Counted from the first letter of the stretch, positions 332-53,567 are shown. The stretch is 64,000 bases of DNA from Phycisphaerales bacterium (GCA_027366115.1 DAHXLH010000029.1:7950-71949), one strand, 5' to 3'. The notes: generated from the sequence alone by a model not told the origin. Translations and numbers: made by a program.

Positions 332-3196
332 GTGGTTACCTCGGATGTTGCCGGTAGCGATTCTCAAGCATCGCTGGAGGGATTGAGTCCCGAATTTTTG
401 CAAAATCTTTATGAACAATGGAAACTCAAGCCGGAAGCGGTTGATCCGCAATGGCAATGGTTTTTCAGAGGCTTTGACTTGGCGGCTGATCGGCCTGCAT
501 CGCAAGTCGGTGCAGCGGTCACGGCCGCCCCGGCTGCGGAAGGCGAGCCGGATTTGCAGATCTCGGACTTGGTGCATAGCTATAGGGAACTGGGCCATTT
601 AATTGCCGATTTAGACCCGCTGGGGCATAACGCCACAGACCATCCATTATTGAGCCTCAATGAGTTTGGCTTAAGCGAAGCGGATTTAGATCGGACCGTC
701 AATGCGGGAATTTTTGGGGGCGGCGGCCGCGTGCCATTGCGGCAACTGATTGCCATGTTGCGCGCCACGTATTGCGGCACCCTGGCTGTGGAATATATGG
801 ACATACGTGATCCCCAGCAGCGGCAATTTCTACAAGATATCATGGAGCCGACACTCAATAAGCCGGAGCTTTCCGATGCGGATCGCGCCTTTATGATGTC
901 GCGACTGGCGGCATCGGAAGATTTTGAATTATTCCTGCCGCGCCGGCACCCCACCACCAAGCGATTCAGTATTGAAGGCGCGGAATCGCTGATTAATCTG
1001 CTGGATGAGGTGGTGGAAAAAGCGGCCGAAAATGGGGTGGACGAAATTGTCATGGGCATGCCGCACCGCGGCCGGCTTAATGTGCTGGCCCATACCATGC
1101 ACAAGCCCTACGAAATGATTATGGCGGAAGTGTTGGATCGCCCGCAGAAATCCATGGGGGATGGCGATGTGAAATATCACCTGGGCTATGCCCATGATTC
1201 CACCACACGCTGCGGCCGGTCCATGCACTTATCGCTTTCGGCCAATCCGAGTCATCTGGAAATTGTTGACCCCGTGGTGGAAGGCATAGTCCGCGCCAAG
1301 CAAAACCGCAAAGGTGATGTAACGCGGCAGCGTGTCATGCCGGTGTTGATGCATGGGGATGCCGCGTTTACCGGGCAGGGCATTGTGGCCGAGACGCTAT
1401 ATCTTTCGGAACTTGAAGCGTATCGCACGGGCGGTACCGTTCATATTATTGTAAATAATCAGATTGGCTTTACGACCAATCCAAATGATGGGCGTTTTAC
1501 CCGCTATCCCAGCGATGTGGCCAAGGCGATTCAGTCCCCGGTGTTTCATGTCAATGGCGATGATCCGGAAGCGGTGGTGCAGGCCGCTCGTCTGGCGATT
1601 GCCTTTCGTCAGCGTTTCAAGGCGGATGTGATTATTGACCTGGTCTGTTATCGCCGGCGCGGTCACAATGAATTAGATGACCCTGGCGTAACGCAGCCCG
1701 TGATGTATCGGGAAATTTCCAAACACCCCACCACCCGGCAACTTTATGCTAAACGTCTTCTGGAATCCGGGCACATGACACAAGTCCAGCTTGATGACAT
1801 GGCGCGGGAGATTCATGACCGCCTGGATAAGGCGCATGAATACGCGCAAACCTTCAAACCCACCGAAGCCGCACCACCCGTACACGGCCCGTGGAAAGAT
1901 TTGCTGAAAGTCCCGCGCGATATTCGCGATTGGCGCGTGGATACATCCGTAAGCTCCCAGGAACTCCTGAGCATTGCTGAAAAAGTCTGTAAGTTCCCCG
2001 ATACGTTTTCGCCGCATCCGAAAGTGGCACAAATGTACAAGCAGCGGCTGGATGCCGTGCGCAAGGGCGAAGGCATCGACTGGGGCAACGGGGAAATGCT
2101 GGCCATCGGCTCGCTGCTGGATGAAGGCATTTGGGTACGTCTGACCGGGCAGGATGTGTGCCGGGGAACTTTCAGCCATCGCAACGCCGTTATTTTTGAT
2201 TCGGAAACCGGCAATCCATACAATCCCTTGGCGGCCTTCAGCGAAGCCAAGGCACGCTTTACGATTATCAATACCATGCTTTCCGAGTTGGCGGTGGTGG
2301 GTTTTGAATATGGCTTTTCATCCGCGGATCCCCATGCGCTGGTCATGTGGGAGGCGCAATTCGGTGATTTTATCAATATGGCTCAGCCGATCATTGATCA
2401 GTTTCTGGTAAGCGCCGAGACCAAGTGGAGCAAACACAACGGTATGGTCATGCTGTTGCCGCACGGTTATGAAGGGCAGGGGCCGGAACATTCCCATGCC
2501 CGGCTCGAACGATTCCTGCAGTTGGCCGCGGAAGATAATATTCAGGTGTGCAATCCCACCACGCCGGCGCAATATTTTCATCTACTGCGCCGGCAGATGC
2601 ACCGCAGTTTCCGCAAGCCGCTGATTGTCATGGCACCCAAAAGTCTGCTTAGAAACAAAATGGCGGTGTCGCGGCTGGAGGAATTCAGCGGCGGGCAATT
2701 TGAAGAAATCATCGACGAGACCTCCAAGCTCGATCGCTCACGCGTGCGGCGTGTGCTGGTTTGCAGCGGGAAAATTTATTATGAACTTCTGGCGGAGCGT
2801 GATAAAAATCATATTACCGATATCGCCATTCTTCGCCTGGAACAAATTTATCCCTTTTATGCGGATCGCCTTACCGAAATCGCGCGCACGTATCCCAAAG
2901 GTGTGGAAATGGTATGGGTTCAGGAAGAACCGCGCAACAATGGGGTGTATCCATTTATCGGGGCGAAATTGCATTATCATTGGCCGGGCATGCAAAAATT
3001 GACGTATATCGGGCGCAAGCCGTCGAGTTCGCCGGCGGCCGGTTCGCATGAACGCCACGTGAATGAACAGGCGGAAATATTGGCCCGAGCGCTGAATTTG
3101 TCGGTTGCGGATGTGGTGGGCAAGGAACATGCCCCAGCAGGCCAATCCCGCCCCAGCGAAGTGGAAGTGCGGGAAGGCGCTCCGATGGCGAAATAA
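332..3196 (+). CDS. sucA: 2-oxoglutarate dehydrogenase E1 component
   Basis: 954-aa ORF. The N-terminal 2-oxoglutarate dehydrogenase region (...LYEQWKLKPEAVDPQW...), the ThDP-binding region and the transketolase-like C-terminal domain look like SucA over the full length. GTG start with GGAG 9 nt upstream. The E2 gene follows. Confidence 0.93.
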   Translation: MVTSDVAGSDSQASLEGLSPEFLQNLYEQWKLKPEAVDPQWQWFFRGFDLAADRPASQVGAAVTAAPAAEGEPDLQISDLVHSYRELGHLIADLDPLGHNATDHPLLSLNEFGLSEADLDRTVNAGIFGGGGRVPLRQLIAMLRATYCGTLAVEYMDIRDPQQRQFLQDIMEPTLNKPELSDADRAFMMSRLAASEDFELFLPRRHPTTKRFSIEGAESLINLLDEVVEKAAENGVDEIVMGMPHRGRLNVLAHTMHKPYEMIMAEVLDRPQKSMGDGDVKYHLGYAHDSTTRCGRSMHLSLSANPSHLEIVDPVVEGIVRAKQNRKGDVTRQRVMPVLMHGDAAFTGQGIVAETLYLSELEAYRTGGTVHIIVNNQIGFTTNPNDGRFTRYPSDVAKAIQSPVFHVNGDDPEAVVQAARLAIAFRQRFKADVIIDLVCYRRRGHNELDDPGVTQPVMYREISKHPTTRQLYAKRLLESGHMTQVQLDDMAREIHDRLDKAHEYAQTFKPTEAAPPVHGPWKDLLKVPRDIRDWRVDTSVSSQELLSIAEKVCKFPDTFSPHPKVAQMYKQRLDAVRKGEGIDWGNGEMLAIGSLLDEGIWVRLTGQDVCRGTFSHRNAVIFDSETGNPYNPLAAFSEAKARFTIINTMLSELAVVGFEYGFSSADPHALVMWEAQFGDFINMAQPIIDQFLVSAETKWSKHNGMVMLLPHGYEGQGPEHSHARLERFLQLAAEDNIQVCNPTTPAQYFHLLRRQMHRSFRKPLIVMAPKSLLRNKMAVSRLEEFSGGQFEEIIDETSKLDRSRVRRVLVCSGKIYYELLAERDKNHITDIAILRLEQIYPFYADRLTEIARTYPKGVEMVWVQEEPRNNGVYPFIGAKLHYHWPGMQKLTYIGRKPSSSPAAGSHERHVNEQAEILARALNLSVADVVGKEHAPAGQSRPSEVEVREGAPMAK

Positions 3197-5243: not shown

Positions 5244-7046
5244 TCATTTTTGGACCCCGTTCCGGGCAACACTTGCCTTGCGACTCCTCCGCAAGGAGGA
5301 TATTGGATAGACCCAGACGCCGGCAGTGTGCAGCGGATGGTGCGAGACGTTTTTAAGCACCGCAGCGTATTGAGGCTTGTCAACATCCGGAACAACAATT
5401 GCGCCAACGTGGAAGCGCCTGGCAAACGCGGCCAGTTCCGCATGATAATGTACGGGAGCCGTGGCTGCATAGAACGCTTGGGGGATCGTCTGCTGCGCGT
5501 AAGGACCGGTGAGGGCCAGATAGCCGCCGGCCAGACGAAAATAAAATCCCGTCTCCGCCTGCCAAATCATGCTGTCTCCATTAATTCCGTAGGGCAGCGC
5601 GACAATATTTTCTCCCGGCATAAGGCTGGCTCTAACTGCAGGCCCTGTAAAAAAAGAAGGGTTTGGCGGGCGCACCGCCCATAAACCGGCAGCTATATTG
5701 GGGAACATGGTGGCCGCGACCAGAAGGCCAAGCGCCGCACGGAAAGCCGGACGCCGTCGCGATTTCGTCAGCCACCACGCGGCAATCAAGGCCGTTACCA
5801 GACTGACATACAGGCTCAATCGTGCAGGAAGCGCCTTTTGCAGCACGGGGATATGCCCAAGCAGGCTCCACGGCAAGGCAATGGGAAGGTTCCATCCGGC
5901 GACGGTCAGATACGGCCCCAGACTCAGGAGCACCATTCCCAGTAGCAGCAACAGCAGGAAGCACGCGGCCGGCTTTTTACGGAACTCCCAGCCGTACAAT
6001 CCCACCAGCACCAGCAGCGGCAATCCGATGTACGCAGATTGCTCGGGAAGGAAGCCGGAAAAGCGGCGGGATACAAACGCCATCGTATCACCACCCGCCC
6101 AGAGAGTCCGGGTAGGAATCAGGAGGTTGGCGGCATCGGCGCTAAAATCCCGTGCCGGATGGATTAGCTCCGGCTGTCGGCCCAATTCGGTGAACATCAC
6201 GTAGAGAATGGGGGAGAGCATAACCCCAATGACCACCATGCTGGTCAACGTGCAGGCGAAAAGGCGGTAAAGCCTCTTCCGCGTCTCGCTATCTCTCCAG
6301 CATATTATCGCGGCGATGGCGGCGATGATCCCGGTGAGCACCGTTGTGGCAAAGAGTTCCGTGGAAGTCAGAAACAGCACTATTCCGGCAGCGGAGAACC
6401 AGCCGGTAAAGCGCCGGGGCGATATTGTATTTTTCATGTAGCGAATTACCAGCAGCGTCATCAGGGGAATCATCCAGACACAATAAAGGTTCGGCCGCCC
6501 CATCAGCTCCGCCATGACATAGGGAGAAAATCCGAACAGCCATCCGCCCAGTGCCGCAGCCGGCAACTTGGCCCCAATCTGTCGGCATGTCATCAGTGCG
6601 GAAAAGGAATTGAGGACAGGGGCGGCAACCGCCAGCAGGTTGTAGCTGATTATTGGTCCCAACGTCAGCGTAACGGGGGCCAACAAAAGTGCCAACACGG
6701 GCGCGGATTGTGTCCAAGCCAGACTTTGTCCCGTGGGTGCCCAGACTTGGCTGGTGAATAGAGGGTTCAGACCATGACTTAGTGCAAAGGGCCACCAGGC
6801 GTAAAACCACATTGCCTGGGAGGCATCAGCAATCTGATGGGCGACAAGCATGGTGGAAAAATTGAAGTTGATGGGGATCAGGAGGCCGGCCGCACAGAGA
6901 ATATAAACAACCAACACGGCCGCAGGCTGCAGGCAGTACGGGAAAGTCGAGAGAAACGATATCAAGCCTCGCTTTTCTTGCGAAGTGGTTTGAGGGCGCG
7001 TTTCCTCGTGTCGCTTTGCATCCATGCTGTCCGCTTGTTTGTTCAT
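5244..7046 (-). CDS. Polytopic integral membrane protein with C-terminal soluble domain (possible GT-C-type glycosyltransferase-like; function unassigned)
   Basis: 600-aa ORF with 10 or more predicted hydrophobic helices in the first ~430 aa (WFYAWWPFALSHGLNPL, LLLLLLGMVLLSLGPYL...) and a ~170-aa hydrophilic C-terminus. No motif I can name with confidence. Confidence 0.55.
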   Translation of the reverse strand: MNKQADSMDAKRHEETRPQTTSQEKRGLISFLSTFPYCLQPAAVLVVYILCAAGLLIPINFNFSTMLVAHQIADASQAMWFYAWWPFALSHGLNPLFTSQVWAPTGQSLAWTQSAPVLALLLAPVTLTLGPIISYNLLAVAAPVLNSFSALMTCRQIGAKLPAAALGGWLFGFSPYVMAELMGRPNLYCVWMIPLMTLLVIRYMKNTISPRRFTGWFSAAGIVLFLTSTELFATTVLTGIIAAIAAIICWRDSETRKRLYRLFACTLTSMVVIGVMLSPILYVMFTELGRQPELIHPARDFSADAANLLIPTRTLWAGGDTMAFVSRRFSGFLPEQSAYIGLPLLVLVGLYGWEFRKKPAACFLLLLLLGMVLLSLGPYLTVAGWNLPIALPWSLLGHIPVLQKALPARLSLYVSLVTALIAAWWLTKSRRRPAFRAALGLLVAATMFPNIAAGLWAVRPPNPSFFTGPAVRASLMPGENIVALPYGINGDSMIWQAETGFYFRLAGGYLALTGPYAQQTIPQAFYAATAPVHYHAELAAFARRFHVGAIVVPDVDKPQYAAVLKNVSHHPLHTAGVWVYPISSLRRSRKASVARNGVQK

Positions 7047-7542
7047 GTCCTGCTACCTCAGGTGAACAGCCTGGGCGAGAGAACTGCCCTGCCCCCGAAT
7101 GGCGGCGTGCCTCGGCCACTGCCCAACTGATCCCGCGACGTGCCGCTGCCTCAGTTGCGCCGAGAATGGGTTAATCATTTCGAGCCAGCCGGGGCGGACC
7201 CGCATTGGCCAATCCGCCGAGCCGCGGCGCTCCAGCGGATGCACCCTGCAAAACATTTTACGGCTAATCGTCCGGTGGGGTGCAATAGAGCGGAATTTAG
7301 CAAGGTGAACGGAGCCTATTCCGCTGGAACCGGCTGAGTGGCTCGTGCTGACGCGAGAAAGCTCGTCCTGCAGGCGGATGGAGCAAGGGACAGGCTCCTC
7401 TCGCAAACCAACCTGAAACTAGAATCGCGACAGTCACCGGAACCTGCCGGTGGCCTTCATTTCCAGCTCATTATCCTCCGCCTGCTATCGGCGAAGCACG
7501 AACCCCGCGGCACGCCGGTTGGGCCGCTTTGGGGTGCCACGG

Positions 7543-8178
7543 TTATTTCGCGGCCTGATAAATTTCGGCAACTTTGGCCCAGTTGACCACTTCCCACCAA
7601 TTGGTGATGTACTCAGGCCGGCGGTTTTGATATTTGAGGTAATAGGCGTGTTCCCATACATCCAGGCCCATGATCGGCTTGCCCGACAGGCCGCAAACCG
7701 CGTCGCCCATCAGCGGATTATCTTGATTGGCGGTTGAACCAATGGCCAGTTTGCCATTCTTCAGAACCAGCCAGGACCAACCGGAGCCAAAGCGTTTGGT
7801 CGCGGCTTCGCCGAAACGGGTCTTGAAGTCAGCAAAGGATCCAAAGGAGGAGTTAATCGCGGCCGCCAGGTCGCCGGTCGGCTCGCCGCCGCCACCCTTG
7901 CCCTTGGGGGCCATGATTTGCCAGAACATGCTGTGATTGGCATGACCGCCACCGTTGTTGCGTACGGCGGTACGAATATCTTCAGGCACGGAAGCGAGGT
8001 CGGCGATCAGCGCTTCCACGCTTTTGCTTTCCAACGCGGACTTACCGGCGACGGCATTGTTCAGATTGGTAACATAGGCACCGTGATGTTTGCCGTGGTG
8101 AATCTGCATGGTTTGCGTATCAATGACTGGTTCCAATGCGCTAAAGTCATAGGGTAAAGAAGGAAGTTGAAAAGCCAT
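7543..8178 (-). CDS. sodB: Superoxide dismutase (Fe/Mn family; DVWEHAYY favours Fe-type)
   Basis: 211 aa. Canonical Fe/Mn-SOD metal ligands and motifs [25 protein letters not shown] and AIGSTANQD. Confidence 0.92.
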
Positions 8179-8294
8179 AAGGGTACTCCTGAAAACAATT
8201 TACTCATCCAACCAGCCACTTACGTGCGGCAGTATTTTCACTCTCATAATTGTAGCACAATTCCGCACACGTCAAGGCCGTAATGCGGGGGAAA

Positions 8295-9932
8295 TTATTG
8301 CGTTATTGAATAATTGACGATTTTATCGCCCGATGAAATTTGTACACTGGCCTTGCCGCCCTCATGCACAGTAACGGTTTTAAGCCAGACACGCATTTGT
8401 GCGGCGGAGTGCGTCCAGATCAGTACATCATATTCGGCTGGTCCAAGCTTAATGGGCTTATTCATCGAACCTTGTGCGTTAAGCGTTGCCGCCGCCACGC
8501 GCTGACCAGCCAGTAACGGTTCAATGGTACCGCGGAAGTAACTGCGTATGCGTGTCAATGAACTATTGGTATTGGTGCCCACTTGAGACGCAAATAATAC
8601 CGGTAATAGCTGCGACCATGGGGCATCATGATGCAATCTGAGATTCAAGGCATTTTGATGGTACATCGTGGTCATGGACGTATTGGGCGTTCCGCTGATA
8701 TTGGCGGATGACCATGGCGGCTTGCCGGCTATAATGGCACGATGAATTCGTCCGAGTCTGGCCGATGCGGCCTGCATGGCAAACCGTACAGCGGCCATGC
8801 GCGTGCCGGCGGGGATTATCCACATATTGACCGGGGCTGATGAAAGATTCTTCGCGGCTAACTGCACCGTCAGAGAGGAATTATTGTAAGGCAGTTGCGG
8901 ATAAGCCGAAGCCCGCAGGGGTTCAAGTTTTTCAGTGGACAGGCTCGCGAGGTCCACACTGGCTGTCTGTTTCATGTGCAAGGCTAAGGGCTTTTCATTG
9001 GAGGGAATAAGGAATATCCAATCCTGTATCACGCGCCGATGGCCATGCACGGTTCGGTAATCGTCGACCATGGCATTGTTAAGTTTCACCGGCGTATATT
9101 GGCGGCCGTCCTTAAGATATCCGCTGGGAAAGTACATTTTGCCGCCGGTGGTGACCATTTGCACTTCTGCCGGTGTCAATCGAAAATAGCCCTGATCCGA
9201 GCTGACATTGGGCTGGGCGCTGCCATGGTTTACTTCCGTGCGGACCAAAATAGCCTGTTTTCCAGCCGCGGGAATCCCGTACTGCTTAAGTACGGCCACC
9301 GGCAGCGGTGCGGCAAAGGGAACATGCAACAGACTTGGTGGAAGGGCTTTAGCCCCAGCATATTGGACGGTGTAGCGGTCGGCATACCATTGCCGGAGGG
9401 GCTGGGGATTGTACTTGCTGAAGGGTTGCCCGCCTACGCTTCGGCCGCTGACCATGCCCCAGAGGCTGGTAACAAAACCATCCGGATCCAGCCACAGGCC
9501 GGTGGGTGAGTTACTGGCCAAATCCGCCGCCGTGCTGTACCGGGAATATCCCAAAATACTGCTGGGCAGCGGCAGCATTTGCACGCCCACCATTACCGAG
9601 CCGATTAAAATCATGGCGGTAAAAAAGCCAAAGGCCCCTCCAACGATGCGTCCCGGCCAGAGCGGGAGTTCCACATCGCCGCGAATCAGGTAGTCAAAGG
9701 CCGTGCGAATGAGGGAAAAAGCCAGGAAAAATACCAGTAAAAACGTAACGCCGTACGCAAAATCAGGACGATGATTCAGAATGGGATTGGCCCACGCCTG
9801 ATAGACCCCCATCGCCAACGTAGAGGCAAAGAAGCTGGCACACAACAGGAGTAATGCTGACAACGGCCCCTCATTGGCCATATATAGCGCAAAGAGGATA
9901 ATGAACAATAGTACGATGAATTGAAGAATCAT
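8295..9932 (-). CDS. CvpA-family membrane protein with a ~380-aa C-terminal extension of unknown function
   Basis: The first ~160 aa have the CvpA (colicin V production) architecture of four TM helices (MILQFIVLLFIILFALY..., GVTFLLVFFLAFSLIRTAFDYLIRG, GGAFGFFTAMILIGSVMVG). The rest is a large hydrophilic Ser/Thr/Asn-rich domain with no recognisable motif. Begins 68 bp after the stop of the GspE-like gene. Confidence 0.65.
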   Translation of the reverse strand: MILQFIVLLFIILFALYMANEGPLSALLLLCASFFASTLAMGVYQAWANPILNHRPDFAYGVTFLLVFFLAFSLIRTAFDYLIRGDVELPLWPGRIVGGAFGFFTAMILIGSVMVGVQMLPLPSSILGYSRYSTAADLASNSPTGLWLDPDGFVTSLWGMVSGRSVGGQPFSKYNPQPLRQWYADRYTVQYAGAKALPPSLLHVPFAAPLPVAVLKQYGIPAAGKQAILVRTEVNHGSAQPNVSSDQGYFRLTPAEVQMVTTGGKMYFPSGYLKDGRQYTPVKLNNAMVDDYRTVHGHRRVIQDWIFLIPSNEKPLALHMKQTASVDLASLSTEKLEPLRASAYPQLPYNNSSLTVQLAAKNLSSAPVNMWIIPAGTRMAAVRFAMQAASARLGRIHRAIIAGKPPWSSANISGTPNTSMTTMYHQNALNLRLHHDAPWSQLLPVLFASQVGTNTNSSLTRIRSYFRGTIEPLLAGQRVAAATLNAQGSMNKPIKLGPAEYDVLIWTHSAAQMRVWLKTVTVHEGGKASVQISSGDKIVNYSITQ

Positions 9933-9960
9933 TGATGATCTTCCAATGCGCTGCGGCGTG

Positions 9961-9986
9961 TGAATCGCAATCCGGCAAGCGATTCA
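9961..9986 (-). other. Intercistronic hairpin (8-bp stem tgaatcgc/gcgattca, 10-nt loop) between the GspE-like gene and the CvpA-like gene
   Basis: Perfect inverted repeat seen directly. Sits between the stop (10001) and the next start (9932) on the minus strand. No U-tract follows, so it is not a canonical terminator. Confidence 0.35.
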
Positions 9987-10000
9987 GAAGCCTGTGTCAC

Positions 10001-11770
10001 TTAACTGTTTCCAGCGGACGATCCGCCGGCCTGAGAGCTACCGGCACCCGTGGCACCAGCCTGAGTTTGCCCCGGTATCTTCCCGGTCTTGTCCGTATCT
10101 GCCTTGGGGGGTCCGGAAGGCGCGGCTTTCGGTTTGGAGGCCGACTTTTTGTCCGGAGTGCACACGCGAATCACTTCCTGGATTGAAGTAATTCCCAGGG
10201 CAAATTTTCTAAAACCGTGTTCCACCATGAACATCATATTATTTTTCCGCGACAGGGTGCGGATTTCTTCCGCCGGCCGTCCGGTGGCAATAGCCCGGCG
10301 AATTTCGTCATTGATCACCAGGATTTCAAATATTCCGGTCTGTCCGCGGTAACCCAGACTGGCGCAATCCGGACACTTTATTAAATTCCCCTTTGGATCA
10401 CGGGACGGTTGTGTGTTGGCCTTAAAGGCTGAGAGATCGCGGCCGACGGGTAAATTCAACTTGGCCAGCATCGCCTCATCGGGCTGATAAGCGATTTTGC
10501 ATGTCGGGCAGAGCAGGCGCACCAGCCGCTGGGATATGATGGCGCGCAGCGGCGTGGCAGCCACTTGGTTATCGGGCAAAACTTTACGCCACAGTTCCAG
10601 GGCGGTAATGGCATCATTAGCTCGCAAACCAACATAAACACGATGCTCTTCACGAGAGTATTTGGCAATCGCTTCTGCCGTTGCCGCGTCGGGGCATTGC
10701 GCCACCATCAGAATATGCGGGTCTTTTAGCATAAGACTTTGCAAGGCTTTAGAGTGGCTGGCGTTGGCTGCGGAGGGGTCGAAGCGGGTTAAGGAGATGG
10801 ATTCAAAATCGGCCCGCGGGTTAATTTCAAAAGTGTTGATGCTGGTCGTGTAAGCGTCATGATTAGCCAGCAGGGAATAGAGCGTGGTTGTGCGGCCCAT
10901 GTGCGGGGGAGATGATACGATCACCAGCCCTTCATTGCCCTGAAGCACCTCGCGCAGGGCCGTGAGTTGTTCGGACGACATGCCTAGGTGATCCAGCGGC
11001 ATTTTCCAGTTATCTTTGGCGTTTATCTGGAGCCATAGCCGTTCACCAGCTGTTGTGCCACTGGTATTGGCGGTCCAGTGGACCGGATTGTTGTCCGCAT
11101 CGCGGGTGGTAAATGTTGCCGATTGCGGGCGCCGCCGCTCTTCCAGCGAAAGGCCGGTAAGCTGTTTGACGGATTGGATCAGCGGTTCGGCGTTGGTGCG
11201 CTGCATCCCGGATTGGGGGTAGGCCACCCCGTCTGTACTGAAGGACATTTCATAAGCCTGAGCCGCCGGCATAAGATCGATACGCTGCGCCCGGTTTTCC
11301 AAGCCTTGTATCAGCAACTGATCCAGCAGCACCACGCCGTTGTAACCGGGGTCTTCCACCGCCGGCAGGTGCAGCGGCTTTCCGCCCTTTCCTTCATACC
11401 GCAAGCCCAGTTGGGAAACGGACTTTTTTGCCCGCCGCCCGGCGGAAAACTGCTCCATGTGCCCGGATATCACACCCAGCAGATCGCCGGAAGATCCCAG
11501 CACCTGCACGCGTGTGCGCCAGTAATAACCCAGTAAAGCTCCGGGAATGAATATATTCAGTAGCAGTGCAAACCAGAAGTTTGGAATCAGCAGCCAGATC
11601 AGCAGGAGAATGGCCACGGATCCCAGCAAAGCGCCTTTCCATATCAGGGCGGGCTGTTCGGGCATGTTAGGAAGGTCATTGTCAATCCAGACAAGAAAGC
11701 GTCCCCAGAGCACAAGAACGGCAACCGCCACCGCAACATAAATGACATTTACATACATCAAAGCAATCAT
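10001..11770 (-). CDS. GspE/PilB-family secretion-ATPase homologue with N-terminal transmembrane anchor and degenerate catalytic motifs (predicted pseudo-ATPase)
   Basis: 589 aa. N-terminus has 2-3 hydrophobic helices (MIALMYVNVIYVAVAVAVLVLWG..., ALLGSVAILLLIWLLIPNFWFALLLNIFIPGALLGYYW). The core aligns to T2SS/T4P ATPases. The C-terminal tetracysteine motif CPTCK...CPDC is retained. Walker A is SSPPHMGRTT (canonical GPTGSGKT/ST), the Asp box is INTFEINP (canonical IEDPIEY), Walker B is HILMVAQCPD (canonical D..L.GEMRD) and the His box is EHRVYVGLRAN (canonical TGHLV.STLH). Confidence 0.75.
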   Translation of the reverse strand: MIALMYVNVIYVAVAVAVLVLWGRFLVWIDNDLPNMPEQPALIWKGALLGSVAILLLIWLLIPNFWFALLLNIFIPGALLGYYWRTRVQVLGSSGDLLGVISGHMEQFSAGRRAKKSVSQLGLRYEGKGGKPLHLPAVEDPGYNGVVLLDQLLIQGLENRAQRIDLMPAAQAYEMSFSTDGVAYPQSGMQRTNAEPLIQSVKQLTGLSLEERRRPQSATFTTRDADNNPVHWTANTSGTTAGERLWLQINAKDNWKMPLDHLGMSSEQLTALREVLQGNEGLVIVSSPPHMGRTTTLYSLLANHDAYTTSINTFEINPRADFESISLTRFDPSAANASHSKALQSLMLKDPHILMVAQCPDAATAEAIAKYSREEHRVYVGLRANDAITALELWRKVLPDNQVAATPLRAIISQRLVRLLCPTCKIAYQPDEAMLAKLNLPVGRDLSAFKANTQPSRDPKGNLIKCPDCASLGYRGQTGIFEILVINDEIRRAIATGRPAEEIRTLSRKNNMMFMVEHGFRKFALGITSIQEVIRVCTPDKKSASKPKAAPSGPPKADTDKTGKIPGQTQAGATGAGSSQAGGSSAGNS

Positions 11771-11917
11771 TCCTGCCTTCGCGTGTAGCCTCAGGCACCA
11801 TGCTACGCGCCGCCAAATGCAAAACTTACCATGATCCGGCTAATTAAGCCAGAGATTTAATCGGAATCATCCTTGACGCCACTTAGCGCTTCTGCGCTAT
11901 TTCGCCTCCCGCAGGGG

Positions 11918-13051
11918 TTAATTCGTACGAATGCCCTTCATGCGCATGCGCAATTCATCCGGATTGGGCGACGCAATATAGGCCTCTTTGTGTGTAATGG
12001 TCTCGCTGGCCACAAGTTCACACAGCATGTCATTAAAGTCAATCATCCCGGCTCCGCGCTCGGACCGGATCACCTGCGTCAATTCATTTTCCCGGCCTTC
12101 AAGAATGTATTTCCTGACCGAGGGTGAATTCAACATGACTTCGACCACCGGGACTCGGCCAATGGCTGGATCGATGGCCGGCACCAGTTTCTGAAAAATA
12201 ATGGCCTTCATATTGTTGGCAATGGCTTGACGCATGTTCATGTGCATATCCGGAGGGAACAATTCCAGAACGCGTGTGATGGCTCCCGGAGCACTGGCGG
12301 CATGAATGGTGGAAAACACCATGTGCCCGGTTTCTGTGGCCTGTACGGCAGCCTGAAATGTCAGGCGGTCACGCATTTCCCCGATCAAAATAACATCAGG
12401 GTCTTCACGCATCATGTAGCGGATGGCCATTTCAAAGCTTTCAACATCCAGACCCACTTCGCGCTGGTTGATAAAGGCTTTCTGATCCACATAGGTGTAT
12501 TCAATAGGATCTTCTATGGTGATAATGTGGCATGACCGCCGATCGTTCACTTGCTGGAGCATCGCAGCGATGGTGGTGCTTTTGCCGCTGCCCGTGATGC
12601 CCGCGAGCATGACCAGTCCCTGTTCGTTGTCCGCAATTTTTTCAAAAACTTCAGGCAGGTGCAACTGGGCGAAATTCGGAATTTTCGGATTAATGCGCCG
12701 CGCCGCCAAGCTGACCATGCCGCGCTGGCGAAAAATATTGACGCGGAATCGCTCGGTGGGGCCTATGGCGTAGGCGATATCCAGTGATCCGCGATGCAGG
12801 AAATCATGCCACTGCTCTTCGGTGAGCATTTCCTTGACCATGGCTTCGATTTCCGCATTGGTCAGCGGTGTGCCGGTAGTCGGAACCAGCCGACCGGATT
12901 TACGCACGCGCGGCAATACCTCGGCCTTGATGTGCAAATCGCTGCCTTCCACCTTGGTGACAACTTCAAAATATTTATGAATCTTCGGCGTTGCTCCGCG
13001 CTTGGCGGATTCGGCGACTTCAACTTTTGTACCCTGCGATTCTTTAGTCAT
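11918..13051 (-). CDS. pilT: Type IV pilus retraction ATPase PilT/PilU family
   Basis: 377 aa with intact Walker A (GITGSGKSTT), Asp box (ITIEDPIEY), Walker B (DVILIGEMRD) and His box (TGHMVFSTIHA). Typical PilT length. Confidence 0.88.
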   Translation of the reverse strand: MTKESQGTKVEVAESAKRGATPKIHKYFEVVTKVEGSDLHIKAEVLPRVRKSGRLVPTTGTPLTNAEIEAMVKEMLTEEQWHDFLHRGSLDIAYAIGPTERFRVNIFRQRGMVSLAARRINPKIPNFAQLHLPEVFEKIADNEQGLVMLAGITGSGKSTTIAAMLQQVNDRRSCHIITIEDPIEYTYVDQKAFINQREVGLDVESFEMAIRYMMREDPDVILIGEMRDRLTFQAAVQATETGHMVFSTIHAASAPGAITRVLELFPPDMHMNMRQAIANNMKAIIFQKLVPAIDPAIGRVPVVEVMLNSPSVRKYILEGRENELTQVIRSERGAGMIDFNDMLCELVASETITHKEAYIASPNPDELRMRMKGIRTN

Positions 13052-13099
13052 GCGACCATTATCCTTCTTACTAAAAACTAAAACTTACAACACACGCGC

Positions 13100-13789
13100 T
13101 TAAAAAGCCAGTCCATCCAGGGATTTTAGCCCCAGTGTTTCCTGCACGAAAAAGGGTTCCGCGAATCGACGGCGAATGGTCCCGCCGAAATATCCGTTGA
13201 TATTCTCAATGTAGGGGAGGATTTCCCACTGCGATTCCGCCGGCCGCCCCGTACTGAACTGCGATTCATAACACCGCACCGCCTGACGTTTAGCATCCAT
13301 GGCATCTGTAACATCCACACAGAAAGAGGCCGGAAAATTAAACCGCAGATGGGAGCAGAAATAGTAGATCAACCGCGGCGGATAAAATGGTTCACCGGGG
13401 ATTTCGGATTTTGTCAGCTTGGCGTCAAACCGGGCATCTTCAGCGATTTTGGTCACTTGCCGATGGTCCGGGTGGGCGTCCTGGGGATAGGGAAGAAATA
13501 CAATATCAGGGCGAAGCCGGCGAAACACGGCGGCCGTGGCATGGCGCGCGGCAAGACTCCATGTCACTTCCCGATTTTTCAGCCCCAGTGACAGGCGGGT
13601 GGCTCCCAGAATCTTGGCGGCAGCGGCTGATTCGGCCGCCCGCGTTTCGGGTGTGCCGAAGGGCGTCGGTTCGCCATTGGTCATGTCCAGAAGTGTCACA
13701 GCGTGCTTCTGTCGCGTGAGCAGGGCAATCGTTGCGCCCATAGCGAGTTCCTGATCGTCGGGGTGGGGTCCAATTACCAGAATGTTCAT
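13100..13789 (-). CDS. PIG-L/LmbE-family N-acetylglucosaminyl deacetylase
   Basis: 229 aa. N-terminal VIGPHPDDQELAMGATIA and a downstream DAHPDH motif, typical of LmbE-like zinc deacetylases such as BshB or MshB. Confidence 0.78.
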   Translation of the reverse strand: MNILVIGPHPDDQELAMGATIALLTRQKHAVTLLDMTNGEPTPFGTPETRAAESAAAAKILGATRLSLGLKNREVTWSLAARHATAAVFRRLRPDIVFLPYPQDAHPDHRQVTKIAEDARFDAKLTKSEIPGEPFYPPRLIYYFCSHLRFNFPASFCVDVTDAMDAKRQAVRCYESQFSTGRPAESQWEILPYIENINGYFGGTIRRRFAEPFFVQETLGLKSLDGLAF

Positions 13790-13851: not shown

Positions 13852-14991
13852 TCAGCGGGATTCAAACGATTTCCAATGCTGATTGCGCGGTCCGATATAT
13901 TCCGCGCGGGGCCGGATCAGCTTGTTGTTTGAATATTGCTCCAGAATGTGGGCAATCCATCCGCTGGTGCGGCTGATGGCGAAAATCGGAGTAAAAAGAT
14001 CAGCGGGTATATGCAGATAGTGATACACTGATGCGCTGTAAAAATCGACATTCGGTTTCAAATTTTTTGTTCGTACCACCAAGTCTTCGATGCGCACAGA
14101 CATTTCATACCAGCGCTGCTGCCCGGTCAGGGTGCCGAGCTGGCGCGACATTTCCTTGAGATGCCGCGCGCGCGGATCGCCGTTTTTATAAACCGCGTGT
14201 CCAAAACCCATTATTTTTTCGTGGTTGTCCAGCTTCGCCCGGATATAGGCATCCACGGTGTCCGGGTTGCCGATTTCATTAAGCATCCGCATGACCTGTT
14301 CATTGGCTCCGCCATGCAGGGGGCCTTTTAAGGCACAGATGGCGGCTACGAGCGCGGAGTGCATATCGGTCAGCGTGCCTGCCGCCACGCGTGCGGCAAA
14401 TGTGCTGGCATTTAATTCATGATCCGCGTGAAGAATATAAGCTTTGTCCAGGGCGCGTGTGGCCAAAGGTTCGGGCGATCGGCCGGTGAGCATGTATAAA
14501 AAATTTGCCGCCAGGTTCAAATCACGTCGGGGTGCCAGAGGTTCGCGGTCGTTGCGGATGCGATCATACGCCGCTACGACGCTGGCCATTTGACCCAGAA
14601 TCCGCAGGGATTTTCGCTGATTGGCCGCGGCGGACATGTCTTCGGATTCAGCGTCAAACATGGCCATAGCGCTGGCGGCGGTGCGCAGAGCTTCCATCGG
14701 CGTGCTGCGCCGGGGAAAGGATTTCATCATGGCCAGCAGCCCTTCCGGCAATTGTGCCTGCTCGGCAATGGATTGGCGCAGATCGTCCAGTTCTCCGCGC
14801 GTAGGAAGTCGCCCGTTCCAAAGCAGAAATACCACTTCTTCAAATGTGGAATTTTCCGCCAGTTCATCGATGGAAATGCCGCGATAGGTCAACACGCCGT
14901 TTTCAATGGAGCAAATGGAAGAGCTTAACGCCACGATGTCGCGCAGGCCTCCGCTGGTTGCGCCGACGGTAGTCATGGGGGTCTGGGTCAT
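13852..14991 (-). CDS. Citrate synthase, short (~380 aa) type (citrate or 2-methylcitrate synthase)
   Basis: 379 aa. Citrate synthase signature GFGHAVYKNGDPRA and catalytic His/Asp context. No prpB or prpD nearby, so a 2-methylcitrate role is not supported. A second, long-type citrate synthase lies at 52281..53567. Confidence 0.85.
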   Translation of the reverse strand: MTQTPMTTVGATSGGLRDIVALSSSICSIENGVLTYRGISIDELAENSTFEEVVFLLWNGRLPTRGELDDLRQSIAEQAQLPEGLLAMMKSFPRRSTPMEALRTAASAMAMFDAESEDMSAAANQRKSLRILGQMASVVAAYDRIRNDREPLAPRRDLNLAANFLYMLTGRSPEPLATRALDKAYILHADHELNASTFAARVAAGTLTDMHSALVAAICALKGPLHGGANEQVMRMLNEIGNPDTVDAYIRAKLDNHEKIMGFGHAVYKNGDPRARHLKEMSRQLGTLTGQQRWYEMSVRIEDLVVRTKNLKPNVDFYSASVYHYLHIPADLFTPIFAISRTSGWIAHILEQYSNNKLIRPRAEYIGPRNQHWKSFESR

Positions 14992-15713: not shown

Positions 15714-17072
15714 GTGAACACGACCAGCACCACCAAGATTGGCCCTTTTGACCCGTTGACCAAAATTGAACGATGGGGCCTGATCGCGTTGCTGATCGGC
15801 GTTTTTGCCTTCGGCTGCGTGACGGAAGTTCGATCCGCCTTTCTTAAACGGCGGATGACCGATGTGGATACTTATTTTCGCGCCGCATGGGCGGTGCGCG
15901 TGCATAAAGATCCCTACAATGTCACAGATACCAATGGATGGCATTACAATTATCCGCCTCTGCTGGCAACCCTTTTGTACCCTCTGGCTGATGCCCCGGC
16001 CAAATTCAGCCGCGCGGGCTTATTGCCCTATCCCGTTTCCGTGGCGATCTGGTTTCTCATCAGCATTGGCTGTATCTGGTGGGGGAGTCATGCGCTGGCG
16101 GAGGCTCTGGAAAAAACTTCCACCGATCCGGCTGTGCGCAACATGCCGCGTTTTTGCCGCCGGTGGTGGGCGCTTCGCATTATTCCAATTTTGGTCTGCC
16201 TGCCGGCCATTGGCCGCGCGGTGGTGCGCGGACAGGTCAATAGTGTTCTTTTAATGCTGTTTTGTTTTGCCGGGGCGGCTTTGGCCACGCGCAAACGCTT
16301 TTGGGCCGGGTTTGCCAATGGCTTGGCGGCGGCGCTAAAGGTTTTCCCGGGCTTTTTAATTCTTTATGGAATATCGCGGCTGCGGTGGACGTATCTTGTC
16401 GGTATGGCGGCGGCGTTAGCGGTGGGCTTGTTGGTTATCCCGGGGATCATCATGGGGCCGCAACACATGATGGCTGCGTATCACCGCTTTGCCCAAGTGG
16501 TTTTGGAGCCTGCCCTGGGATTGAATCATAATACCTCGCGTGATAAGGAACTTCTGGATATTAATAAGACTGATTCGACCAGTTTTGAAGCGATGATAGA
16601 CCATACGGTTTACCTCGGGCGCCACGCTCCAGCCCCGGCAAAATGGATGAAATTGGCGCATTGGGGAATTTCCTGCGTGCTTGTGGCGATTACGCTGCTG
16701 GTGGAATTTCTACGCCGAAAGGATGATCCGATATTTCGCAATCTGTTTCTTGGCGTGCTGATTACCATCATGATGCCCATTATCCCCATTTGTCATCCCC
16801 ATTATTTCTGTATGGTGCTGCCGCTGATTACAGCGCTACTGGCGGCGCGTTGGGAACATGACCGGATGCTTCCTCTGGGCGGCGCATTGGGTTGGGTGTT
16901 CATCTTTTTTGCCGCATCCCATATTATGACGGTGCTCCCGCCGCCATTTTATATTCTGCGTGGCCTGGGGCTGGTTACCTATTCGGCTTTGGCGCTCTGG
17001 GGTCTGGGATTATTTGTGATGTGGCATTGGGAAACCCCGCGCGAATGGCTGCCCGCTGCGGCTGGAACATAA
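15714..17072 (+). CDS. Polytopic membrane protein, DUF2029/GT87-like (possible polyprenol-phosphate-dependent glycosyltransferase)
   Basis: 452 aa, about 10 TM helices. First periplasmic loop carries DVDTYFRAAWAV...NGWHYNYPPLLATLLYPLA (the Y-x-YPP motif of the GT87/DUF2029 family as I remember it). Assignment is tentative. Confidence 0.5.
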   Translation: MNTTSTTKIGPFDPLTKIERWGLIALLIGVFAFGCVTEVRSAFLKRRMTDVDTYFRAAWAVRVHKDPYNVTDTNGWHYNYPPLLATLLYPLADAPAKFSRAGLLPYPVSVAIWFLISIGCIWWGSHALAEALEKTSTDPAVRNMPRFCRRWWALRIIPILVCLPAIGRAVVRGQVNSVLLMLFCFAGAALATRKRFWAGFANGLAAALKVFPGFLILYGISRLRWTYLVGMAAALAVGLLVIPGIIMGPQHMMAAYHRFAQVVLEPALGLNHNTSRDKELLDINKTDSTSFEAMIDHTVYLGRHAPAPAKWMKLAHWGISCVLVAITLLVEFLRRKDDPIFRNLFLGVLITIMMPIIPICHPHYFCMVLPLITALLAARWEHDRMLPLGGALGWVFIFFAASHIMTVLPPPFYILRGLGLVTYSALALWGLGLFVMWHWETPREWLPAAAGT

Positions 17073-52280: not shown

Positions 52281-53567
52281 ATGGCAGATTCAATTCAACT
52301 TTCCCTTGATGGAAAAACCTACCAATATCCCCTGGTCACCGGAACCGAGCAGGAACGCGGTATTGATATCAGTCGCCTGCGATCGGATACGGGCCTGATC
52401 ACCTTGGATCCCGGCTACGGCAACACCGGGTCGTGTCAAAGTGCGATTACCTATATTGATGGGGACAAGGGTATTTTGCGGTATCGCGGTATTCCCATTG
52501 AGGAATTCGCCAATCATCCCAATTTTATTGAAGTGGCGTGGCTGCTGATCTTCGGCCGCCTGCCCAATAAAGGGGAAAAAGACCGATTCAGCGATCGTCT
52601 CACGGCCAATGCGCATCTGCATGAAGCGATGAAGCATACGTTTGAAGGATTCCCCATTACCGCACCGCCCATGGCGATTACTTCCGCCATGATTAACACG
52701 CTGGGATGTTTTCACTCGGAACTTTATTCACTGGATGATGAAGTATTGCTGGAAGAGGCGGCCGCGCGGCTGATCAGTAAAATAAGAACCATCGCGGCCT
52801 TTACCTATCGGCGTGTTAACGGCCTGCCCTACATTTATGCCGATCCCAAATTGCGCTATTGCGCCAATTTTCTGCACATGATGTTTTCCATGCCTTATGA
52901 ACAGCATCTGGTGGATCCGGAAATTGAAAATGCGCTGAATCTAATTTTTATTCTCCACGCGGATCATGAGCAAAACTGCTCCACCAGTACCGTGCGTATG
53001 GTGGGCAGCAGCAAGGCTAACTTGTTTGCCAGTTGTGCGGCGGGCGTGTGCGCCTTGTGGGGACCGCTGCACGGCGGAGCTAATGTCGAAGTGCTGGATA
53101 TGCTGGAAAAAATTCATGCCGGGGGCATGACCGCGGAAAAATATATTGAGTTATCTAAAAAGAAGGATAACAACATCCGCCTGATGGGTTTTGGCCATCG
53201 CGTGTATAAAAATTATGACCCACGGGCCAAAATGCTGCAAAGCGTTTGTGAACGCGTGCTGAAAAAACTTAATGTCAAAGATCCGCTTCTGGACATTGCC
53301 CGGAAACTTGAAGAGCTGGCTCTTAAGGATGACTATTTTGTCGCCCGAAAACTGTATCCCAATGTCGATTTTTACAGTGGCATGATTATGCGGGCCATGG
53401 GCATTCCAACGAATATGTTTACGGTGCTCTTCGCCATCGGGCGGCTGCCGGGATGGATCGCCCATTGGAAGGAACAGCATGATGATCCGGCATCTAAAAT
53501 TGCCCGGCCCCGGCAGATATATACCGGCCCGGTGGATCGCCATTATGTGCCGCTGGATCAGCGTTAA
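52281..53567 (+). CDS. gltA: Citrate synthase (long, Gram-negative GltA type)
   Basis: 428 aa. Signature GFGHRVYKNYDPRA. N-terminal beta-domain typical of the hexameric type II enzyme. Confidence 0.92.
   Translation: MADSIQLSLDGKTYQYPLVTGTEQERGIDISRLRSDTGLITLDPGYGNTGSCQSAITYIDGDKGILRYRGIPIEEFANHPNFIEVAWLLIFGRLPNKGEKDRFSDRLTANAHLHEAMKHTFEGFPITAPPMAITSAMINTLGCFHSELYSLDDEVLLEEAAARLISKIRTIAAFTYRRVNGLPYIYADPKLRYCANFLHMMFSMPYEQHLVDPEIENALNLIFILHADHEQNCSTSTVRMVGSSKANLFASCAAGVCALWGPLHGGANVEVLDMLEKIHAGGMTAEKYIELSKKKDNNIRLMGFGHRVYKNYDPRAKMLQSVCERVLKKLNVKDPLLDIARKLEELALKDDYFVARKLYPNVDFYSGMIMRAMGIPTNMFTVLFAIGRLPGWIAHWKEQHDDPASKIARPRQIYTGPVDRHYVPLDQR

Follow-up and report, generated by a model that had tools for sequence, protein, structure and literature searches.

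In current understanding, the motor ATPases of the PilT/GspE family are soluble hexamers docked on GspL or PilM and on a platform protein. GspL, or PilM together with PilN, attaches the cytoplasmic motor hexamer to the inner membrane and connects it to periplasmic parts. CvpA (colicin V production protein; PF02674) has four N-terminal helices in the inner membrane and a C-terminus that varies in length and is predicted to be periplasmic; it occurs in dozens of phyla, and enteric pathogens need it to colonise the gut, but its mechanism is still not known. In the Planctomycetota, the envelope, the fibres, and the uptake behaviour are unusual and largely unexplained at the molecular level. We analysed a 64,000-nucleotide stretch of DNA from a Phycisphaerales bacterium (GCA_027366115.1, DAHXLH010000029.1:7950-71949; hereafter, the window) in which an earlier reading of the sequence (the original prediction) had picked out three consecutive genes encoding the retraction ATPase PilT, an inactive, membrane-tethered paralogue of GspE/PilB (psGspE), and an enlarged CvpA-like membrane protein. 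The psGspE gene and the CvpA-like gene form a conserved pair. Literature searches on CvpA, pili, pseudo-ATPases, and Planctomycetes gave no description of this pair; it appears to be previously undescribed and may be a new accessory part of pilus-like machinery. The coordinates, the minus-strand orientation, the 147- and 68-bp spacers, and the 48- and 62-bp spacing of the PIG-L and citrate synthase genes in the original prediction were all exact. The cluster is laid out as follows.

11918-13051, minus strand: pilT, 377 aa
11771-11917, minus strand: spacer between pilT and the psGspE gene, 147 bp
10001-11770, minus strand: psGspE, GspE/PilB paralogue, 589 aa
9933-10000, minus strand: spacer between the psGspE and CvpA-like genes, 68 bp
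8295-9932, minus strand: CvpA-like gene, 545 aa

Inside the 147-bp spacer between pilT and the psGspE gene, no minus-strand terminator-like site was found. Close homologues are from Phycisphaerae/Planctomycetota metagenome-assembled genomes (MAGs). We compared the arrangement over 60 loci, consisting of 45 contigs that represent one genome per species and 15 contigs of diverse family members. The loci were sampled within the Planctomycetota, the sequences are metagenome derived, and all named family members are MAGs. For the 45 loci, genes were called only crudely; the tallies for the pair and for PilT are based on tblastn instead of these calls. The psGspE gene was directly upstream of the CvpA-like gene and on the same strand in 58 of the 60 loci, with gaps ranging from -4 to 139 bp, many of them 3 to 24 bp. 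The adjacency was kept even where identity fell to about 31% for psGspE and to about 17 to 25% for the CvpA-like protein, and it was seen in loci labelled Phycisphaerae, Planctomycetales, and Planctomycetaceae as well as in further Planctomycetota lineages. The adjacency of the two genes is therefore conserved far beyond chance. Such close and ancient adjacency is usually a mark of joint action. PilT was directly upstream of the pair in 37 of 50 evaluable loci, in all sampled classes. The invariant unit is the pair of psGspE and the CvpA-like protein, and PilT is a frequent but not obligatory companion. The genes thus do co-occur in other genomes, and the original prediction was not refuted on this point; the conservation of the proposed cluster is supported, with the adjustment that PilT is not a fixed member.

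An accidental adjacency of three functionally unrelated genes would fit the housekeeping surroundings of the cluster (genes for citrate synthase, superoxide dismutase [SOD], HisF, and PIG-L) and the promoter and terminator scans, which were uninformative. We assign this explanation next to no probability. The pair is retained in nearly all of the loci and at the lowest identities sampled, often with overlapping or 3- to 24-bp junctions, while other neighbours turn over, and for the pair an accidental adjacency is effectively refuted by synteny.

The predicted product of 11918-13051 is a canonical retraction ATPase of the PilT/PilU family with intact catalytic motifs. It scored 389.7 bits on TIGR01420 (cutoff, 319.1), covering profile positions 2 to 343 of 343, and aligned end to end with the solved PilT structure 5fl3 (E = 8e-78). 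Against 5fl3, all motifs were intact: Walker A (GITGSGKST), the Asp box (IEDPIEY), Walker B (GEMRD, which includes the catalytic Glu), and the His box (TGHMVFSTIHA). Hydropathy analysis revealed no transmembrane (TM) or hydrophobic segment in the window PilT.

The second protein, psGspE, matched PF00437 (T2SSE) with an E value of 1.9e-45 over residues 148 to 535 (profile positions 11 to 370 of 370), and its nearest solved relatives are PilF, PilB, and GspE (E values of about 1e-40 to 1e-36). It fell far below the equivalog cutoffs for both GspE (TIGR02533, 194.7 versus 630.25) and PilB (TIGR02538, 176.5 versus 675.65). The following segments were delimited in the window copy.

11519-11770, minus strand: N-terminal anchor, aa 1-84, with TM1 and a TM2/TM3 hairpin, from hydropathy
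10889-10912, minus strand: degenerate Walker A, S287-T294, SPPHMGRT where PilF has GPTGSGKS (consensus GxxGxGK[ST])
10160-10522, minus strand: Zn-binding C-terminal subdomain, aa 417-537, CPTC...CPDC
10004-10159, minus strand: low-complexity tail rich in Lys, Pro, Gly, and Ser, aa 538-589, 52 residues

The catalytic motifs of psGspE are degenerate throughout. In the alignment with PilF, the Asp box reads FEINPR in place of IEDPVE, the catalytic-Glu site next to Walker B reads VAQCPD in place of VGEIRD (GE to AQ), and the His box of the window copy has Arg in place of His. The DGR arginine, which forms the second Arg finger, is missing after the conserved RPQ. The Walker A lysine was missing in all 57 readable psGspE copies; the motif ends in GRT in 28 copies, in G[VIL]T in another 27, and in GLS and GRS in one copy each. 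The His-box His was gone in 43 of 44 aligned sequences, the sole exception (L012) reading H. The catalytic-Glu position varies among the homologues, and some distant members keep an acidic residue there. In contrast, the four Zn-binding Cys residues are invariant (44 sequences), and the Zn subdomain is the most conserved region of the protein, with the largest number of columns at ≥90% identity (31). Identity of ≥90% across the family was also seen for the ERRxPQ motif at the subunit interface and for many positions of the N2, core, and C-terminal regions. The loss of catalytic residues together with this strong conservation indicates a maintained noncatalytic protein rather than a decaying pseudogene. 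Judged by its motifs, psGspE cannot be a normal ATPase, and its inactivation appears to be ancient.

We also considered whether psGspE could be a working ATPase with noncanonical residues, for example, with Arg standing in for the Walker A Lys, that serves as the membrane-anchored assembly motor of a planctomycete pilus. The GRT ending in about half of the copies, the acidic residue at the Glu site in some distant members, and the retained Zn site of the assembly-ATPase type would be compatible with such a role. However, the other half of the copies have Val, Ile, or Leu at the lysine position, and both the His-box His, in all but one aligned copy, and the second Arg finger have been lost. In addition, three loci carry a canonical, active PilB/GspE paralogue beside psGspE, and the two are therefore not redundant. 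A catalytic role for psGspE is very improbable.

The psGspE family is set apart by its N-terminus as well. Hydropathy placed hydrophobic segments at residues 1 to 31 and 40 to 83, and W22, W28, D32, W44, P63, F65, Y83, and R87 are conserved positions of the membrane anchor. The N1/T2SSE_N domain (PF05157) had no match in the window psGspE; the family members lack it, whereas canonical GspE/PilB matches have it. The topology inferred for psGspE is N-out with three helices and C-in, placing the ATPase-fold domain in the cytoplasm, because the signal-peptide-like N-terminus of the Planctomycetia homologues and the K/R-rich loop after their first TM helix fit this orientation. The K/P/G/S-rich tail is weakly conserved, limited to close relatives, and often missing in homologues. 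Members of the psGspE subfamily scored at least 246 bits with about 90 to 100% query coverage, whereas canonical GspE/PilB proteins with PF05157 scored at most 158 bits with about 66% coverage; by these scores, psGspE is a sharply distinct subfamily. No Pfam or NCBIfam model is specific to it, and its homologues carry the public labels "GspE/PulE family protein," "ATPase, T2SS/T4P/T4SS family," and sometimes "TadA." Such generic "GspE/PulE" or "TadA" labels mislead metabolic or secretion-system inference from MAGs. The degenerate motifs and the hydrophobic N-terminus bear out the inactive, membrane-tethered GspE/PilB paralogue that had been proposed for this gene.

The third protein consists of two parts.

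9573-9932, minus strand: CvpA-type four-helix membrane domain, aa 1-120, from PF02674 and the structure model
8295-9572 including the stop codon, minus strand: extracytoplasmic domain, aa 121-545, 425 aa, from AlphaFold2

The window protein alone scored 23.6 bits on PF02674 over residues 5 to 125, below the gathering cutoff of 29.3, and had no NCBIfam match. However, the copy in L026 is above the cutoff (31.6 bits), and PF02674 was matched by 35 of 38 diverse family members (E ≤ 0.01; best, 1.5e-13). The model places helices at residues 2 to 21, 23 to 47, 56 to 82, and 91 to 119 with a pLDDT above 94, in agreement with hydropathy. In the 38-sequence alignment, G22, D80, G102, and G111 are invariant. 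A nearly invariant aspartate and three glycines in the membrane domain are the hallmark of CvpA, and the pattern of one Asp and three Gly in Escherichia coli CvpA matches these invariants when compared as a pattern, not residue by residue. The assignment of a CvpA-type N-terminus thus holds at the family level.

The AlphaFold2 model of the CvpA-like protein, built from a 138-sequence alignment, is a single body with a pLDDT of 95.3 and a pTM of 0.87; it supersedes an earlier model from 15 sequences, which was weak in residues 85 to 195 (pLDDT, 66.5). The extracytoplasmic domain is predicted to run from short helices into beta-sandwich modules with a long helical insert. A Foldseek search against 350,542 PDB chains gave no significant match to the model (best E value, 0.24). 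None of the 38 members had a Pfam match in this part, and the window protein, in its 425 residues, had no NCBIfam match. The C-terminal domain thus matched no known family in these searches, and here too the original prediction was not refuted. The length across the family is 369 to 694 aa, with a median of 550 aa. Residues 121 to 345 are conserved family-wide, and the shared core extends from residue 1 to about 275 to 345; residues 346 to 545 are variable or, in the short forms of 369 to 450 aa, largely missing. An exhaustive profile search placed the family at 1,519 clusters at 50% identity with E ≤ 1e-3, or 1,185 with E ≤ 1e-10, whereas a word-indexed search with a broad profile gave close relatives only. 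The original prediction had described a Ser/Thr/Asn-rich domain of about 380 aa appended to a four-helix CvpA-type N-terminus. The N-terminus and the large appended domain stood, the latter at 425 aa. Ser/Thr/Asn richness was dropped as a meaningful trait, the enrichment in residues 121 to 545 being mild (20.5%, compared to 15.9% in neighbouring proteins). In L054, a long contig, the CvpA-like gene is split into two called open reading frames (289 and 304 aa; cited region, 7538-8523 and 11666-13418), which may reflect a disrupted copy or a sequencing frameshift. IS110-family transposase genes are located just upstream of PilT in the same locus.

Neighbours other than the pair and the motor ATPases turn over across the loci. 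In three Planctomycetia loci, an active PilB/GspE ATPase with an FHA domain is inserted between PilT and psGspE.

L028, approximately 6450-8135: inserted FHA-domain PilB/GspE ATPase
L039, 6346-8073: inserted FHA-domain PilB/GspE ATPase
L042, 2890-4791: inserted FHA-domain PilB/GspE ATPase

The motifs of the inserted ATPase are fully canonical (GPTGSGKT, VGEIRD, and TGHLV), and these loci have three ATPases of the family in a row, one of the retraction type, one active of the FHA type, and one dead. With PilT upstream and the FHA ATPase inserted, the only recurrent functional neighbours of the pair are therefore motor ATPases of the PilT/GspE family. Crude clustering of the gene calls in the 45 loci likewise showed that, beyond the ATPases, only clade-specific housekeeping genes recur.

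We tentatively propose that the pair forms an undescribed inner-membrane adaptor complex that works with PilT-type motors in type IV filament machinery, a reading that we consider quite possible without calling it probable. psGspE and the CvpA-like protein would form one inner-membrane complex, with a dead psGspE ring as its cytoplasmic face and the CvpA-like protein as its periplasmic face. True type IV filament motor ATPases would use this complex as an adaptor or a platform on which to dock; the main partner would be PilT, joined in some lineages by the FHA-domain PilB/GspE-type ATPase. The motor would give the energy, and psGspE would give a fixed membrane attachment and a protein-protein interface. 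Its anchor would replace the tethering provided by the N1 domain and GspL or PilM/PilN, and the CvpA-like domain would couple the assembly to the periplasm or the outer envelope. The replacement of PF05157 in psGspE by TM helices with conserved interface residues is consistent with this proposal. The small membrane machine that was originally suggested is an inference from these data, as are a physical complex of the two proteins, a link to PilT activity, and any role in pili.

Several observations weigh against this proposal. No gene for a platform protein (PilC, GspF, or TadBC), pilin or pseudopilin, PilM/N/O, or secretin was found in the 64-kb window, and no filament structural genes were conserved near the pair in the 45 loci or in the Pfam-labelled neighbourhoods. 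The link to filaments is therefore drawn from the ATPase neighbours alone. PilT had no place in the cluster in 13 of the 50 evaluable loci, and L035 and L037 have a CvpA-like gene without an adjacent psGspE. The CvpA-like protein would expose only a loop of about 20 residues to the cytoplasm, so most of its contact with psGspE would have to lie inside the membrane. Around the cluster, the scans for promoters and terminators gave no more than shuffled sequence did and were uninformative on operon structure. A scan for prepilin motifs gave one unrelated open reading frame only, about 9 kb from the cluster in L003. Because genes for the platform protein, pilin, and secretin are missing nearby, the layout fits none of the type IVa pilus (T4aP), type II secretion (T2SS), Tad, or Com systems, as had been suggested from the window.

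L035 and L037, the latter on a complete chromosome (CP070806.1, match at 10001-11800), are Phycisphaerae loci with about 25% identity to the window CvpA-like protein. In L037, an ABC permease gene is upstream of the lone CvpA-like gene.

The lack of filament structural genes around the pair, and its persistence without PilT in 13 of 50 loci, would also suit a self-contained envelope module unrelated to filaments. Such a module could act in stress sensing, envelope maintenance, or transport, with psGspE as a recruited scaffold and the PilT adjacency as inherited gene order without a working link. CvpA of E. coli has a genetic link to the sigma-E response to extracytoplasmic stress, and the neighbours of the cluster include a downstream gene for a DegP-like protease (L033 and L039) and one for an ECF-type sigma factor (L008). 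These envelope-type neighbours are, however, sporadic, with one or two loci each. Moreover, the PilT adjacency is kept across classes at identities of about 50% for PilT and about 25 to 31% for the pair, and the sole insertion into the cluster is a gene for a further motor ATPase from this family. We regard an envelope module as doubtful, though by no means far-fetched.

The conservation of ERRxPQ and of the fold would permit ring formation or mixed assembly, and psGspE could accordingly be imagined as a negative regulator or decoy that keeps PilT or an assembly ATPase at the membrane but away from the pilus base or forms mixed inactive hexamers. The CvpA-like protein would then be a periplasmic sensor that times the release of the motor, and the variable C-terminal half of its periplasmic domain would suit lineage-specific sensing. 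The synteny of the pair with PilT fits equally, and a GGDEF cyclase (L034) or PilZ proteins (L055 and L058) are occasionally nearby. The data do not separate activation from inhibition, the neighbours related to c-di-GMP are sporadic, and strict pairing and purifying selection fit a structural part equally well. An inhibitory role of this kind seems unlikely.

A bolder version of the adaptor proposal is that the pair is not an accessory of ordinary pili but a phylum-wide, PilT-powered trans-membrane machine of its own, which we consider distinctly unlikely. ATP-driven motions of PilT would pass via the inert ring and about 18 TM helices to the periplasmic domain and would perform mechanical work in the periplasm, which is unusually large in planctomycetes; the operation of fibres, pores, or uptake structures would be examples. 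If true, this would provide a first mechanistic handle on the widespread CvpA fold.

Other genes surround the cluster in the window. Those nearest to the cluster are listed below.

13852-14991, minus strand: citrate synthase gene, upstream of the PIG-L gene, 62 bp apart
13100-13789, minus strand: PIG-L deacetylase gene, upstream of pilT, 48 bp apart
7543-8178: Fe/Mn SOD gene, downstream of the CvpA-like gene

The citrate synthase, PIG-L, and SOD genes are neighbours of the cluster in a single Phycisphaerae clade, the one nearest to the window, throughout which the PIG-L gene adjoins PilT. They were rejected as members of the module, being confined to that clade. The window PIG-L protein, which is BshB1-like, scored 177.6 bits on the model for the bacillithiol deacetylase BshB1, slightly below the cutoff of 182.5. 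PIG-L genes were also found about 3 to 5 kb from the cluster in L047 and in L052/L053. The citrate synthase is of the type II/2-methylcitrate synthase-like kind (379 aa), and a second citrate synthase gene is present in the same 64-kb window (52281-53567, 428 aa). Further genes of the window encode a 2-oxoglutarate dehydrogenase E1 (332-3196), a 600-aa polytopic membrane protein without a Pfam match (5244-7046), and a GT87-family glycosyltransferase of 452 aa (15714-17072), which flanks the cluster region on the opposite strand and accompanies the cluster in the closest relatives only (L001 to L007).

A HisF-like gene (His_biosynth, about 255 aa) is recurrent upstream of PilT/psGspE in Planctomycetia-type loci (L026, L031, L040, L044, L049, L058, L059, and L060). 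In L040 and L058, PilT is not in between, and the HisF-like gene is immediately next to psGspE. HisF was rejected as a member of the module because it is specific to the Planctomycetia. In loci without PilT, the upstream gene encodes a GGDEF cyclase, a methyltransferase, or an ECF sigma factor. An ECF-type sigma factor gene is divergently upstream in L008, and a HAMP-GGDEF cyclase gene is upstream in L034 (6238-7701). Small PilZ-domain proteins are encoded near the cluster at L055:14244-14696 and L058:4291-4707. The sporadic c-di-GMP-related neighbours could hint at regulation. At L033:5425-7053 and L039:11821-13341, the gene directly downstream of the CvpA-like gene encodes a DegP/HtrA-like protease with a Trypsin_2 domain and two PDZ domains. 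In L048, a gene with a hydrazine synthase domain is nearby.

A dead, self-anchored paralogue that is kept phylum-wide and strictly paired with a CvpA-fold protein would be a new kind of component for the machines of this motor family, and psGspE would be a natural experiment on motor tethering and exchange. The pair would also give CvpA its first defined partner. As a PilT-associated membrane module specific to the phylum, it would be a concrete candidate for the envelope, fibre, and uptake traits of planctomycetes.

Compared to PilB, GspE, and PilF, psGspE has the same N2 and C-terminal ATPase-fold domains and the same tetracysteine Zn site, but it is without the Walker A Lys, the catalytic Glu, the His-box His, and the DGR Arg. 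About three TM helices are present in place of N1/T2SSE_N, and the strict partner of its gene is a CvpA-like gene, not GspF/PilC or GspL/PilM. The tethering proposed for the psGspE anchor and the CvpA-like protein would be the same job as that of GspL and PilM-PilN. These proteins, however, have no sequence or fold relation to the pair, in which the anchor is fused to the ATPase-fold protein and the periplasmic part is on a polytopic CvpA-fold protein.

In the archaellum, ArlH (FlaH) is a weakly hydrolysing or nonhydrolysing NTPase-fold protein between the motor ArlI, a member of the GspE family, and the platform protein ArlJ. It may be the nearest functional analogy for a dead ring acting as an adaptor; in contrast to psGspE, a GspE paralogue, ArlH is of the RecA/KaiC type, soluble, and archaeal. 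PilU is reported to be a PilT-dependent retraction ATPase (PMC6762196 and PMC6821130) and is thus a precedent for one family member needing another. psGspE is likewise a second protein of the PilT/GspE superfamily beside PilT and could plausibly act only with it. However, PilU is a soluble, active paralogue of PilT, whereas psGspE is of the PilB/GspE type, with the Zn site, and is membrane anchored and dead.

The CvpA-like family differs from canonical CvpA, which has about 160 aa and a short tail, in the addition of 250 to 530 residues predicted to form a folded extracytoplasmic domain and in its tie to a GspE-type gene. MarP (Rv3671c) of Mycobacterium tuberculosis has a four-helix anchor and a periplasmic chymotrypsin-like protease domain and shares with the CvpA-like protein the architecture of a four-helix anchor that carries a periplasmic domain. 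The protease domain is fused to the anchor in MarP, whereas the domain of the CvpA-like protein is predicted to be beta-sandwich and helical and is without a detectable relative. The DegP-like protease of L033 and L039, encoded by a separate gene downstream of the CvpA-like gene, is reminiscent of the MarP fusion.

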